From the NCBI GenBank assembly GCA_958009085.1, contig OY253687.1:806001-870000 (forward strand): a DNA stretch of 64,000 nucleotides, written 5' to 3'. The position numbers and the translations under genes were made by a program. The stretch is from Protoeuglena noctilucae. Lineage: Eukaryota. Position 1 is the stretch's first letter, and each line of letters begins with the position of its first letter. This document shows, one piece after another, positions 32,908-47,900 of this stretch. The notes beneath the pieces are model-generated. The model was given only the letters and a program-made list of their open reading frames with translations, was not told the origin of the DNA and did not search any database.

Positions 32908-35900
32908 AGCCATGACGGCTCAGTCATCCCAAGGCCTGGCTGCCATCCCCACCGACCTCCGACACGCGTGTCTGACAGAATGCATCGACTGCCTCGCGGT
33001 GCTGTTTCCTGACAGCGGGGTCAGGATGGGGGTGGGGCGGGCGATGGCGGCGGTGTGGGCGCTGGATGACGGGCTGCCGGGTCACCTGATGGAGGTGGCG
33101 CGGCCGGCGTGGCACGAGGGGCCGGACGGGGTGAGATGATGGTGGGGTTGGGGTAGTAATAAACCTCTTATTTCTATTTACACGATATCGTCATTCAAAT
33201 CTCTTATTTAAATATCCCCTTCCTTCCAGGTCACCGTGGGCCGCGTCTCCCTCCCCTCCCGCCGCACCGCCCTCGCCTCTGCCGCCGCCGCCGTCGCCCG
33301 CACCCACAACAACATGACACCCGCATCCGCCGATTTCGCGAGCACCGGATCCGCGCTGCGGCACGCGGAGAGGGTGGCGGCGTGCGCGGCGATGGGCGAG
33401 CCGGCTCTGCTGGTGGGGGAGACCGGGGCGGGCAAGACCACGCTGGTGCAGCGGGTGGCGAGTGCGGTGGGGGCGCGGGTGGTGGCGCTGAATCTCAGTC
33501 AGCAGACGGACGCTGCGGATTTGATTGGGGGGTTCAAACCGGGTGAGGGGGGGGGAGGGGTGGGGGGTAGCTGTGGGGGGCATGGGAGTGAGGGTGTTAC
33601 GGCGGTGTGTGTGTGTGCAAGGGGCAGCGTGTGTTGCAAAACACAGCATCTCTCATGTCCTGCTCTCTCGTCACATGCTCATAACAACATTGTAGTTATA
33701 CTATATCATGTAATAATAGTAATAAAATACTATTGGTATTACAGCAAAACCCATTCTCTCTCTTCCCCCCCATCGCAGTGGATGCCAAAGAGGCGGTCCG
33801 GCCGTTGCTTTCCCGATTCCCAGACCTTGTGCGGTGGACGTGGCCCAAAGGGGACAACGAGCAGCTGCTGCACCGAGTGGCCAAGGTGATTGATAATAAG
33901 TGGTTAATATGGATATACAGATATATAGATAACTGATGGATAGGCCAAGGTGAGTGATAATTATATAAGAACAATTATAGATGGGTGAGGGATGCATAGA
34001 GGGCGATAGGTAGATGTATGGCTGTCATGTGCCGTGATGCGAAAACGTGCTACAATATGCAATGTGCTATGTATTGGATTATCAGTTCTGCACACGTCCC
34101 TTACAACCCCATCCTCTCTCCTCTCCCTGCAGTTGGGCGAGCGTGGCAAGTGGTCCCAGGCACTCAAAGCCTTCCGCAGTGCAGCGGACAGGGTGGTGTG
34201 GGGCGGTGTTGACAAAGAGGGGGAGGGAGTTGATAAGGAGGGGGGGAGGAGGAAGCGGGCCAGGACACACAAGCCGGAGGTGAGAGGTGGTGTTCGTGCA
34301 TGAGTAGTGAGCATATAGTATTGATAGTGACGTGATGATAGTAACGCTATCAACACGTGGCTTGTGCTGATAGGAGGAAGCGGGCGAGGGCGCACAAGCC
34401 TGAGGTGAGACATGGGTGTAAATTCATAAATTATAACTATATATAGTATTGATAGTGACGTGCTGACATGGCATGTGTTGATACCATGGCATGCGCATTC
34501 GCGCATCGTTTGCTTTACCTCGCTCTCCCAGCCACCCATCTTGTCACACAGCCCCTCTCTCTCCTCCCCCTATTACATGCATCACTGTTCATCCCACTCA
34601 TTCAATCCAACTCTCCCCCATTCCCCCCACTCAGGTGGTCTCCGCCTGGTCCCAGTTTCCAATCTCTCTGTTCCCCTCAACTCCATACATCGATTCATAT
34701 CATTTACTTACTCTCTCCCCCATTCCCCATCTCAGGTGGTCTCCGCCTGGTCCCAGTTTCTGGCGGACATGTCTGACGCCGACTGCGCCCTGGCGGCGGC
34801 CGAGGGGGGCACCGCCTTTGCCTTTGTGGAGGGGGCGATGGTGAAAGCTGTCAGGGATGGGGACTGGCTGCTGCTGGATGAGGTGAGAGGGGAGTGGGTG
34901 ATGATGAGGCTTTGGAGCGCATGGGTACTTCATTTAATTATAATAGTAATAACATGAATATAAGAACTGTAAATATTATAATTCATTCCCATTCCATACA
35001 TACCCACTCAGATCAACTTGGCCCCCCCCGAGGCTTTGGAGCGCGTGGGCAGTCCCATACATGTGCATATCAATGAAAATTTTTAGTAAAACTAGTTATA
35101 TTAAAATTTACTACCATTGCCCCCCCCACTCAGATCAACCTGGCCCCCCCCGAGGCCCTGGAGCGCGTGGCGGGTCTGCTGGATGCGGAGGGGGGGTCGG
35201 TGACGGTGGCGGAGAGGGGGGACGCAAACGCGGTGCCCAGACACCCCCACTTCCGACTGTTCGCGGCCATGAACCCGGCCACGGGTGAGGGAATTATAGA
35301 ATAGTGATGGACAGAATGATGATAGTGTGTATTTGTTGATAGCAATGACCATGCACTAAGGGTGACCGTGTGGTGTGAGTGACCATGCGCTATGCATCCA
35401 ATATAACAGACGTAGCCACCCCATGCCAGTCATCATCTAAACCTTTGACAGTTATACATTAACCCACCTCACTCACCCATTCCCTCTCCCCTCTCTCCCC
35501 CCCCCCAGACGCCGGCAAGCGCGACCTCCCCGCCCCCCTCCGCAACCGCTTTACTGAGACGTGGGTGGACGAACCCACATCACGCGAAGACCTGGGCATC
35601 ATAGTGACCGGGTATCTCAGTCAAGCCACAGCATCTGTGTTTGTGAATGCGTGCGTGGAGGCGTATGTGCGGCTGCGGGCGATGGCGGCAACGACGCTGG
35701 TGGATGGGGCGGGGCACCGGCCGGCTTACTCCATGAGGGCGCTGTGCCGGTGAGGGTGGGTGGGGGTGGATGTGTGGGGTTGTTCTGGGGGTAAGAGATG
35801 CATGAGCTGCAAGTGTGCCCCTCATCCATCCTCAATCTCATACCTTGTTACCATTCTATTACCATTCTATATCATATTTACCATTATAACACCCCCCTCC

Positions 35901-44900: not shown

Positions 44901-47900
44901 GCGCTGGACGGCTTGCGATCCCTCAGCGCCGAGTGCATGTTCCCTGTCGATGCTTTGTCATTAACAGCTGCGGCTGACGACACAGGTGCAATTGCGGAAT
45001 GGGATGCGATGGCAGGGGCGGGTGCGGGTGGGGCAGAGGAGGGTGCTGCGCGGGCGCGGGCGGTGCTGCAGAGGGCAGTGCGGGCATCCGACCCCGCTCT
45101 GCGCGCGCGGCTGGTGCGGGCGCTGTGTCTGGCAGCGGCCGCGTCTGCCCTACCCGTGTCAGAAAGCGCAAGTATGGACCCCGCTGCTCTGTTGGATGGG
45201 ATGCGTGCGGCAGTGGAGGGCAGCGCATCGGAAGAGATCAGCGCAACGGAGGGGCAGGGTTACGCGCACATGTGGCCGCCGCTGTTGGCTGCGAGAGAGG
45301 CGGCGACGGCGGTGGGTGCGGCATGCCAGGGTGCATTGCTTGCCATGCGACAGGCAGAGTGGCAGGACGCGGCGATCGCATGCGCGGCACTGCTGACGTG
45401 CGCCGCGGCTGAGGGGGCGATGGCAGACGAGGGCATGCAAGGGGCGGCGCTGTCAACCGCACTTGCAACAAAGGGGGCGGTGCTGCAGAGAGCGGTGGCA
45501 TTGGGGGAGGCGCACCCCGGCATTCCCGCCGATGCCATTGCACCTCTCCAATTGGCGCATTTCCTCGCGTCAGATGCGGGCGCTGCGTCGCGACTGGGCC
45601 CCGAGCGTGCGATGGGGGTGGCGCAAGAGGCGGGGCATGCGGCGGTGGCGGGGGGGTGGGAGGGGGCGGGGCTGGCGGCGGCGGCGGTGGTGGCGGGGAT
45701 GGGGGAAGGTGAGAAGAAGCGCGTCGCAATAATGCGCAAACAGTGGGTGACTGTAAGTCAATGCGGGGGTGAGATGTGCTTGCCAATGCTAGCCATGGTT
45801 TGTTCATAGCATGTTGATAGCACTAACTGAGTGCCATTCTTACCCATCCACCTTTCCCCCAGGTCTGTCGTGGTGTGCGCTGCTCCCCCCCGCCCGCTCC
45901 GTCACTGCGTCGCTGACGGTGGCAGCGGCTGCGGCACTCACAGCGCCACCCCCCTCGGTGGAGGCACGCAACGCGCGGGCATCGCAGCTGCGCGCCGCGT
46001 GCCGATTGCTGCGATTCCACTCTGCGCGCGCCGACCATTCAGATCGCCTCGCCCATTGGCGGCGGGCTGCATGCGCCACGCTGGCCGTCACCCTCGCCGC
46101 CCACGGCCACCCCGCCACCCCACGCCTGACGAGCCTGGCCCGCGCATTCGCGACGCTCGCAAGCGATAACAACACCTCTGTCGCACACAGCTCCCTGCCA
46201 TCCGATGCGGGCGCTGAGGTGGCGGCGGCTGCGTCCCAGTCCGGCCATGCGACGTTGGCACTCGTAGCCACGCCACTGCTAGCCCCATGCGCTGCAACAC
46301 TCGCAGCAGTCACCAATCGCAACTCCGCACTCAACCCAAGCGATATCGTCCCATTGGCGCGTGCCTGGGCGCTGCTGGGCGCCGCGCGATGTCACCTCCT
46401 CGCCCCTCCCCCCCACCTCGACCCTGCTGCCACCCCCGCCCACGCCTGCGCCACCGCACAGAGGGCCCTTCTGCTCTCCGTTCTGCCAGAGATGGCCGCC
46501 CGGTGCCTGGCGTCGAGTGTGCAGGGAGCGGAGGTGCACGGGGCGCGACTGGCGGGGCTGGCGGATGAAGCGGCGTTGCTTAGAGGGGAGGCGGAGGGCG
46601 CGAGGGGGCGGTGCGTGGCGCGGCCGCGACAGTCGCAGTACCCAGAGCTCGCGGCAGAGACGGGGCGATTCCTGGCGGGGCCGGGTGCGGCTGCGCGCGT
46701 GGCGGCGCTGGCGGATGCGGCGGTGGGGGGCGGTGGGGGTGCGGCGAGGGCGGTGGGCTGGGCGGACGGGGCGCGTGCATTGGCGGAGGGCCTGGCGCGT
46801 CGCTTCCCCGCTTATGTGGATTTGACGCTGCCACTGCGCCAGGCGCTGCTGGAGGCGGCGGCAGGATTCGCGGTTTTGGCTGCGTGCGTGGAGCACCCGC
46901 AGGCGAGAGGGGGTGGGTGTTAATCTATGTATGCTGCGTTGGCTGCATGGAGCATTCACAGGCGAGATGGGAGGGGTGTCATTGCATATGTGCTGGCTGC
47001 GTGCGTCGACTTCTCTTATCAATTGTGAAACTCTCATTTCAGTCTCTTATCCTGCCACAATCAGTCACTTATAGCAAGACATCATCACCTCGCTCTCCCG
47101 TTTCCTCACCGCAGGTGTGCGTGCCATCCGACCAGCCCCTTTCGCAAGACCTGACACCCGCATCCCTGTCATCCGCCGCCGTCGCCGCTCTCATGGCATA
47201 CCCGCAATCGGTGGCGAATGCAAATGCAAACGCGAACGCCTCTGCCATCCACCTCGGCTCCCTGCCGCTCAGCGAGCTCTCGCGCCCGGACGTCCTATCC
47301 GCCGTGTCGCACTGCGCTGACAGTAACGACAAGACGGGCGGGGGTGGGGGTGGTGGCAGCGGGGGTGGCAGTGGGGTTGGCAGTGGTGGTGGTGGTAGCA
47401 CTAGTGACCGTGGCCGTGCTGCCAGCTTCACTGCGCGCGTGGGTCTGCTCTCCGCCGCCCTCGGCGCTTCGGGCCGCGAGGCATCCGCCGCAGTCACGCG
47501 TGCCGCCCGTCAGTCCGCCCTGTCTCGCTTCGAGCGTGCGATGTGGGGTTTGCACGGTGTGTGGTCGGAGCTGCAAGAGAGGGAGGCGCGGATGAGGGAG
47601 GAGGCGGCGGAGTATGACCTGGGGATACGCAAGCGAGTCACCAAGGCGAGTGTGGGTGTGGGTGGGTGGGGGTGTGCAAGAGAGAGAGAGACAGATGACA
47701 CGAATATGGGTGTGGGTTTGGGTGTGGGTGATGGTGGAGGTGGTCGATGGTTTGGTGGCGGTACAGTTGCATGTTACATGTTACGACTAACGCATGCCAT
47801 GTCATGTAATGCGTGCTTGTCACAACCACCATCCATGTCTACCCCTTGTGATGATCTCACGCACGCATGCCACTCTCTTCTCATACACCAATGATAGTCA

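Follow-up and report, generated by a model that had tools for sequence, protein, structure and literature searches.

In the 64,000-nt stretch of the Protoeuglena noctilucae genome analyzed here (contig OY253687.1, positions 806,001 to 870,000 of the forward strand; hereafter the window), introns of the midasin (MDN1/Rea1) gene contain diverged copies of their own exon–intron junctions, each made of a splice site with adjoining intron and a short piece of exon. These copies, named echoes below, lie in tandem with the true junction. In total, 16 such arrays were found, eight at donors and eight at acceptors, of which ten belong to midasin, three to a Kelch-repeat gene and three to a CCDC113-like gene (table 1). 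The pattern is real, statistically solid and unusually dense. The echoes are probably splice-junction-anchored minisatellites, produced by local duplication and unequal exchange and tolerated because the outer site is the one used. A sequence-only reading of this DNA had listed eight midasin junctions with nine echo copies; all of them were recovered, within a few bases of where they had been placed, and that list is a subset of a pattern affecting every intron-rich gene of the window. It had overlooked the donor echo at 38150, the donor echoes at 32526 and 32600, and the six arrays of the two other genes.

The comparison of the window with itself by BLAST, in search of local repeat pairs, showed pairs at 34247/34372 (95 nt, 78% identity), 34611/34713 (49 nt, 94%), 35003/35125 (46 nt, 93%), 37634/37737 (71 nt, 87%) and 39451/39553 (32 nt, 94%), as well as three copies at 35899/36025 and 35891/36135. 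Two short pairs were added, that is, 33879/33943 with 18 of 19 nt identical and 46885/46944 with 52 nt and a score of 26. In the respective search by junction, each junction, taken with 25 nt on its intron side and 40 nt on its exon side, was aligned to its own intron and to the 27 other midasin introns, the 28 introns being those curated from a splice-aware exon model built for this gene. Such an alignment of exon ends against flanking introns had been proposed as a check, and with noncognate introns as the null, 8 to 9 of the 28 introns resemble their own junctions far more closely than any other intron does. In detail, the acceptor junctions of four introns score 41 (34736), 40 (35134), 48 (36159) and 40 (37783) against a null maximum of 17 (n = 756). 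Donor junctions score 26 (32422), 32 (34280), 26.5 (38009), 30 (39478), 22 (46903, p = 0.0013) and 17 (33886, p = 0.005), with the 99th percentile of the donor null at 15.5 and its maximum at 22. The pair 47658/47712 (score 17.5) was dropped as a G-run match. Consequently, strong echoes are carried by 8 of the 28 midasin introns, or by 9 when 33886 is counted.

An annotation-free scan, in which each 60-nt segment was compared with the next 400 nt at a threshold equal to the 99.9th percentile of a displaced null, returned 20 clusters from the window. Four of them (4725, 8399, 19613 and 19706) were GC-rich chance matches, and two more were set aside, one being an AAT microsatellite and the other a pair of dispersed-repeat copies. 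All remaining clusters have a splice junction within each copy. Candidate pairs at 2179 and 39620 were dropped for low complexity, and two pairs, a C-rich one at 2247/2332 and a short one at 33886, were added to reach the total of 16 arrays.

Table 1. Junction-spanning arrays and their host genes, with positions counted from the first base of the window; a slash in a motif marks the exon–intron boundary
Feature	Coordinates	Strand	True site	Echo(es)	Period or unit (nt)	Exon part (nt)	Remarks
Midasin donor array	32382..32625	+	32422 (first intron base)	32526, 32600			all GAG/gtgaga
Midasin donor echo	33879..33961	+	33886 (AAG/gtgatt)	33950 (AAG/gtgagt)	64		weakest case among the arrays
Midasin donor echo	34247..34466	+	34280	34405	125	33	read-through from 34280 to the echo meets stop codons
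Midasin acceptor echo	34598..34760	+	34736 (first exon base)	34635	101		exon part of echo 25/25 identical to exon at 34736
Midasin acceptor array	34906..35170	+	35134	35012	122	37	further partial copy of exon bases 19–37 at ~34906–34930, 23 nt after the donor
Midasin three-copy acceptor array	35871..36192	+	36159	36039, 35913	120–126	34	Tandem Repeats Finder (TRF): period 126, 2.5 copies
Midasin acceptor echo	37627..37807	+	37783	37680	103	25	
Midasin donor echo	37975..38160	+	38009	38150	141		
Midasin donor echo	39442..39590	+	39478	39580	102		
Midasin donor echo, GC-AG intron	46885..46995	+	46903 (CAG/gcgaga)	46962 (same site)	59		
Kelch-gene acceptor echo	1871..2000	+	1968	1908	60		echo frame contains a stop codon
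Kelch-gene acceptor echo	2212..2365	+	2332	2247	85		
Kelch-gene three-copy donor array	2437..2670	+					donors 2476, 2563 and 2653
CCDC113-like acceptor echo	10420..10612	+	10584	10444	140		sole echo without its AG
CCDC113-like four-copy donor array	11306..11690	+	11342	11450, 11558, 11660	108/108/102		TRF: period 108, 2.7 copies, 94%
CCDC113-like acceptor echo	13160..13282	+	13261	13179	82		
Midasin (MDN1/Rea1) gene	32333..54881	+					PDB match, tblastn exon blocks, splice-aware model
Kelch-repeat gene	386 to ~3100	+					Kelch domains in exons flanking the 1871..2000 array
CCDC113/96-like coiled-coil gene	9621-13431	+					Pfam CCDC113_CCDC96_CC match, exon 11788-12072

Each array is a genuine tandem repeat whose unit combines intron and exon sequence. 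In sensitive local alignments, the similarity exceeds the splice motif and reaches 36–70 nt into the intron and 7–40 nt into the exon, which is an indication that whole units were copied; the recurrent junction-spanning tandem duplication suggested from the sequence alone is borne out by these alignments. Periods range from 59 to 141 nt with a mean of 100 nt, so the spacing of mostly 100–125 nt reported earlier describes the echoes listed at that time and not the arrays as a whole. The exon part of the unit measures 7–40 nt (mean 29.5, standard deviation [SD] 9) and the intron part 27–113 nt (mean 71, SD 23). Five arrays have three or four copies. As in the repeat of intron 7 (IVS7) of the human F7 gene, the terminal unit spans the boundary, and the junction is crossed in every copy of the 16 arrays.

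The array at 11342 holds the youngest event of the window. Its spacers 1 and 2 are identical (72/72). Of the 36 positions of the exon part, two distinguish the true junction from echo 1, and one distinguishes echo 1 from echo 2. Since the spacers are identical and the exon parts differ, the newest event was not a plain copying of the true junction; an array that already existed underwent another duplication or an unequal exchange. An exchange would have joined the exon copy to an older echo, with a crossover in the exon part common to both. A duplication whose register was shifted, with one subsequent mutation, explains the array just as well. Whichever route was taken, the arrays turn over like minisatellites. 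In the 36159 array, the echoes agree with each other at 16 of the 18 positions just past exon position 34 and match the exon at only 10–11 of the 18, which fixes the exon part at 34 nt.

Some other readings of the units were tried and abandoned. A target-site duplication around an insert was rejected, as the unaligned middle of the unit varies from 0 to ~50 nt, is unrelated between arrays and is zero in the young ones. Unit lengths quantized at ~21 nt, suggested by eye, were given up after the 21 periods had been listed (59, 60, 64, 74, 82, 85, 87, 90 and so on). The resemblance of a G-rich intron start to the end of the upstream exon, seen by eye at 34883, was also set aside, G-rich starts being general here.

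Metagenomic DNA was used to judge the assembly. A 2497-nt contig from a marine metagenome run (X5) covers 33563–36059 with no difference, and a contig from a run of another study (X4) covers 32333–36059 with three one-base indels, all located upstream of the echoes. At most one of the two runs can be the source of the window, and thus the copies in 33563–36059 are independently confirmed. Both contigs break at 36059–36155, inside the three-copy array, and no contig spans 39476–39655, where the echo 39580 is placed; this comparison covered the midasin arrays up to that at 39478. An assembly artefact, either as stutter or as merged haplotypes, would be in line with the N gap present in the window and with the breaking of short-read contigs at the three-copy array and at microsatellites. 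Nevertheless, the copies have diverged to 78–94% identity, as the sequence-only reading had already argued against stutter, they are always in register with the splice sites, and over 33563–36059 they are identical in contigs of two studies. An artefact is therefore considered next to impossible.

Regarding the site in use, the translation of a 250-residue midasin exon matches the PDB midasin 6or5 (E 2e-73), and several AAA modules are matched. Four exons show Walker A motifs, and several tandem AAA+ modules are homologous to the solved midasin. Among midasin homologues of the protein collection, the best shows 45% identity, and green algae are among those named. By tblastn, the homologues P0001, P0003 and P0009 delimit exon blocks with contiguous residues. 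Protein continuity at nine midasin junctions supports the outermost site (the first donor or the last acceptor) as the working one. For instance, homologue residues are contiguous across 32422/32906 (P0001 residue 454), 34882/35134 (P0009 residue 533), 35750/36160 (P0001 residues 899/900), 37468/37782 (P0001 residues 1164/1165), 38009/38262 (P0001 residue 1240) and 39477/39852 (P0009 residues 1377/1379), and for the acceptor 34736 the alignments begin at 34733/34736. In the Kelch gene, the donors 2476, 2563 and 2653 are all in frame and open, so that the protein frame does not single out the working site.

Leftover decoy splice sites had been predicted, and they are present: the core dinucleotide (GT/GC or AG) is intact in 20 of 21 echoes, and the homologue alignments point to the outer site as the working one. 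Of the 20 echoes that have a frame (2 of the 22 rows have none), 16 would, if used, shift the frame or bring a stop codon into the added sequence. The four exceptions stay open in frame, adding 40 or 82 amino acids in the 36159 array and 29 or 59 in the 2476 array. With a weight matrix trained on true midasin sites, 11 of 12 donor echoes fall within 1.7 matrix units of the true site and thus conform to the consensus, as pseudo-sites do. The exon parts of acceptor echoes are 91% identical to the exon (256/280) and the adjoining intron parts look more diverged, in a comparison biased by the fact that the ends of the alignment define the exon part. Older copies have decayed: 11660 reads gtgggg, and 10444 has lost its AG. 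Nothing here suggests that selection destroys the decoys; if anything, the data hint weakly at the reverse, which would be explicable by exchange with the constrained exon copy. Units that would keep the frame show no significant excess, as 10 of the 21 periods are multiples of three (P = 0.12). Recursive splice sites were rejected, AG/GT being found in one of nine acceptor echoes only, 34635 (cag/GTGGTC), where the exon happens to start with GT.

Two metatranscriptome runs gave sparse contigs over the midasin stretch. They contain one spliced joint, 33542/33779, which confirms the intron 33543-33778. The pieces 33003-33297, 34205-34379, 36145-36385 and 37677-37854 are colinear with the genome and represent either pre-mRNA or carried-over DNA.

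Echo-bearing midasin introns have a median length of 313 nt (n = 9) against 175 nt for the others (n = 19; Mann–Whitney p = 0.0006), in agreement with the intron lengthening claimed earlier. The former measure 212–486 nt and the units 59–141 nt; the difference amounts to roughly one unit or more, which fits the addition of a unit by every event.

The route may be described as follows. A tandem duplication with one breakpoint 7–40 nt inside the exon and the other 27–113 nt inside the adjoining intron would give two copies of the junction, and the message would be unchanged provided that the spliceosome joins the outermost sites. The inner copy would then be wholly intronic and free to decay, and the intron would be longer by one unit. 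Being homologous, the exon copy and the echo may promote further unequal exchange or slippage, leading to arrays of three or four units with patchy identity; slippage, paired nicks and unequal exchange are all conceivable at the molecular level. The restriction to junctions probably has three causes. Duplications within exons would be purged by selection, short introns would force most of the tolerated ~100-nt duplications across a junction, and a copy anchored to a constrained exon would remain recognizable for longer. The absence of a dispersed repeat family among the introns of the 64-kb window, together with unrelated spacers in different arrays, argues for local duplication and not for a mobile element. 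Among the explanations considered, the one in which junction-anchored repeats accumulate passively was ranked first, and a process coupled to the junction itself second.

Several observations weigh against the passive explanation. Harmless decay would be expected to erode the splice signals of echoes; at 88% identity ~16 intact dinucleotides are expected and 20 of 21 were found (P = 0.03). Several echoes even outscore their true site, for example 13179 (7.6 vs. 3.1) and 33950 (7.4 vs. 6.1). The silence of the decoys is putative, being read from protein alignment. Beyond microsatellites and parts of junction arrays, 370 intron-internal segments revealed no wholly intronic tandem duplication, which hints at a real junction preference that passive accumulation does not predict. 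On geometry alone, all 16 arrays lying at junctions has P ~0.00004-0.003. The exon contributes less to the unit than the intron does (on average 0.30 of the period, and under half of it in 15 of 16 arrays; p = 0.0003) and, by its SD, varies less, and the only explanation offered for the narrowness of the exon part is a selection filter, which is a guess: echoes with more exon context would be used and hence selected against. Classical work on duplicated splice sites is reported to have found that neighboring exon sequence affects the choice of site. Finally, the partial echo at 34906 begins with exon sequence and has no acceptor before it, so a single junction-spanning duplication cannot yield this copy.

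For comparison, a metagenome scan for relatives yielded distant midasins (L001-L006) with 77% identity over the Walker A stretch, which served as a control and not for dating. The annotation-free scan, applied to four other GC-rich metagenome midasin loci of ~49 kb in total, gave two strong local duplications. Of these, the first is a donor echo in L004 that is built in the same way (true donor at 7379, echo at 7454, 75 nt), which indicates that junction duplications also occur sporadically elsewhere. The second, at 7200-7350 of L005, is a tandem duplication of ~75 nt wholly within an intron and is the only internal case seen. Local duplications are thereby ~10 times rarer per base in the control loci, at a threshold calibrated on the window and not on loci of 72% GC.

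Intron positions also differ between the window and L004. Coding sequence is continuous at 6240-6300 of L004, where the window has the intron 35750-36158, and the L004 intron 7379-7619, with its own donor echo, falls inside the single window exon 36988-37153. The introns 34883-35133 and 37154-37273 are located 21 and ~22 nt upstream of the L004 introns 5052-5318 and ~7736-8022, respectively. The partial echo at 34906, the oldest one, starts at the codon where the downstream exon of L004 starts. Junction duplication is accordingly a candidate route for intron sliding; as there is one comparison species, these differences cannot be polarized.

The most serious competitor of passive accumulation, although itself an unlikely one, holds that exon–intron boundaries are hot spots for ~100-nt duplications, made preferentially there by a process linked to transcription, splicing or composition. 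Such a process could act through stalling or breakage where introns begin (G-rich) or end (C-rich), or through accessible linker DNA next to GC-rich exons, and the regular exon-side breakpoint would reflect a boundary process in which a bound or stalled factor holds it ~30 nt into the exon. All 16 local tandem duplications contain a junction and none is intronic only, as the sequence-only reading had anticipated in expecting duplications to be commoner at junctions than inside introns. None was found either in ~7.6 kb of low-GC DNA outside the three genes, against the 16 arrays in ~9.5 kb inside them. The narrowness of the exon part, at donors and acceptors alike, next to the broad intron part, points in the same direction, as do ~16 arrays in 64 kb against a single junction echo in the ~49 kb of the control loci. 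However, with introns of ~100–300 nt and units of ~100 nt, 53–69% of tolerated duplications cross a junction, and when exon-anchored copies are allowed a twofold longer detectability, the probability of 16 out of 16 rises to ~0.04, so a true hot spot is not established. The narrow exon part could be due to selection against long exon echoes together with missed very short ones, or to a breakpoint fixed by the junction. Moreover, the low-GC DNA compared lies in the unannotated part of the window, and the L005 case shows that internal events do occur in algae. If boundaries were hot spots, mutation coupled to splicing or transcription would drive intron growth genome-wide and supply thousands of intact decoys; intron positions could also shift, and the 21–22 nt offsets from the other alga would be examples.

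A function of the echoes was judged improbable. Selection could retain them because they bind additional U1 or U2AF and so reinforce the true site, or because, as decoys, they allow alternative splicing that is unproductive, coupled to nonsense-mediated decay or in frame. The intact dinucleotides, the scores similar to those of true sites, the well-kept exon parts of acceptor echoes and the two arrays that are open and in frame would agree with this. On the contrary, echo use truncates or shifts the protein in most framed cases, multiples of three are not enriched, older copies decay, exchange between units explains the patchy identity, and the RNA gives no support. More doubtful still is the possibility that the echoes are scars of intron birth or sliding, that is, leftovers of an origin by exon duplication at a proto-splice site or of a junction shift following duplication. 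In favor of it, the L004 orthologue lacks the intron that bears the three-copy array, and the offsets and the start of the oldest partial echo coincide as described above. The signature of an exon-only duplication is missing, though: such an intron would be of unit length, with a 5′ end copying the downstream exon and a 3′ end copying the upstream exon. The units hold 27–113 nt of AT-rich intron, the donors lie up to 400 nt upstream of the acceptor arrays, and with a single comparison species gain and loss are indistinguishable. Junction-anchored duplication with unequal exchange is therefore retained as the probable explanation.

That such arrays are undescribed at this density, as had been supposed, holds at genome scale within the literature found, in a search largely outside subscription journals; a close case restricted to one intron is known. 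In the accessible text of Borensztajn et al. (2006, PMC1557585), the 37-bp variable number tandem repeat in intron 7 of human F7 has a first unit that spans the donor of exon 7, and identical pseudo-donors following the authentic donor are silent, the most upstream site being chosen, as shown experimentally. Judged from that text, this is the closest known case: the repeat sits astride the boundary and the outermost site is the authentic one. F7, as described there, concerns one intron with 37-bp units at a donor, whereas the 64-kb window contains 16 arrays, with periods of 59–141 nt and acceptors affected as often as donors, and roughly one midasin intron in three carries echoes. Silence was tested in F7; here it is judged from the protein alignment.

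Introns can also be gained when a piece of exon that contains an AGGT proto-splice site is duplicated in tandem (PMC3443670; Lehmann et al. 2010, PMC2891723). In the parts of these reports available, splice signals are likewise duplicated locally, and the surplus copy is spliced out with the protein unchanged. The purely exonic unit of that model creates a new intron of unit length, whereas the units here straddle a junction and lengthen an existing intron. The classical form was rejected, as the units contain intron, the introns are several units long and acceptor echoes are placed in mid-intron; only the copy at 34906, which lies 23 nt past the donor, departs partly from this. The introner elements of Micromonas are dispersed repeat introns (Verhelst et al. 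2013, PMC3879977) and, as far as the accessible text goes, resemble the present case as repeat-bearing introns of a marine green alga that bear on intron growth or origin. They form dispersed families with sequence conserved at many loci, whereas each array here copies its own junction only. Introners were rejected, since no dispersed family is common to the introns of the window; pairs further apart than 600 nt numbered six in the self-comparison of the 64-kb window, none between introns of the three genes. Gao and Lynch, in PNAS in 2009, are said to have treated partial within-gene duplications carrying exon–intron boundaries and their effect on intron structure. What was known, then, seems to be the single-intron F7 case and intron gain by tandem duplication; within the literature found, the dense junction-spanning arrays across introns and genes appear to be new.

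The window consists of GC-rich exons and AT-richer introns. Public runs in which its sequence occurs carry a marine label, in line with a marine green alga. An enolase gene is also encoded on its plus strand, and its best named matches are green algae (70–73%). In Pfam searches, the 56 predicted exons gave named matches only to Kelch, CCDC113/96, enolase and, weakly, a 2OG-oxygenase, and no family was named for 12 long open reading frames. The window-wide exon model over-predicts on both strands in GC-rich DNA, and intron counts are for this reason confined to midasin, whose 3′ end near 54881 is given by the exon model only. A 200-N scaffold gap at 32133-32332 cuts the 5′ part of midasin, and its first exons and introns lie beyond it. 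The intron at 46903 is of the GC-AG type, and its echo retains the GC. A possible second GC donor at ~36409 would agree better with the aligned homologues than does the GT at 36439, which the model selected. The model also made false in-frame micro-exons of 24 nt out of two donor echoes (32502-32525 and 34381-34404). Junction echoes are thus a practical hazard for gene prediction, and automatic annotation of the genome may repeat this error.

Other repeats were noted in the window. A dispersed repeat of ~170 nt exists in three copies (84–91%) at 12253-12422 (inverted), 59895-60065 and 59449-59585; it bears CCCCGGGG-type palindromic bits and may be a small mobile element, with one copy in an intron-like stretch of the CCDC113-like gene. 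A segmental duplication of ~1 kb relates 26690-27734 to 29368-30255 in four blocks (85–93%, offset ~2.7 kb); its region is unannotated and GC-rich, with weak 2OG-Fe(II) oxygenase matches nearby on the minus strand. Simple repeats include (TCACTC), ~34 times in a midasin intron at 42151-42354, and (AAT), ~35 times in noncoding DNA at 56457-56560, and G runs of at least 29 are found at the intron starts 36797-36830 and 41083-41111. Short-read contigs break at several of the long simple repeats.

Conclusively, the structure is explained by tandem arrays that are anchored at splice junctions and lengthen the introns. They represent a route for intron growth in unit steps that is free of mobile elements, and which may also yield intron sliding and new alternative exons. 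If the density of one in three introns holds genome-wide, this alga would offer a natural experiment in splice-site choice, with hundreds or thousands of near-identical decoys at known distances and with known exon context, so that the effects of position, exon context and site strength could be tested against each other in a green alga.

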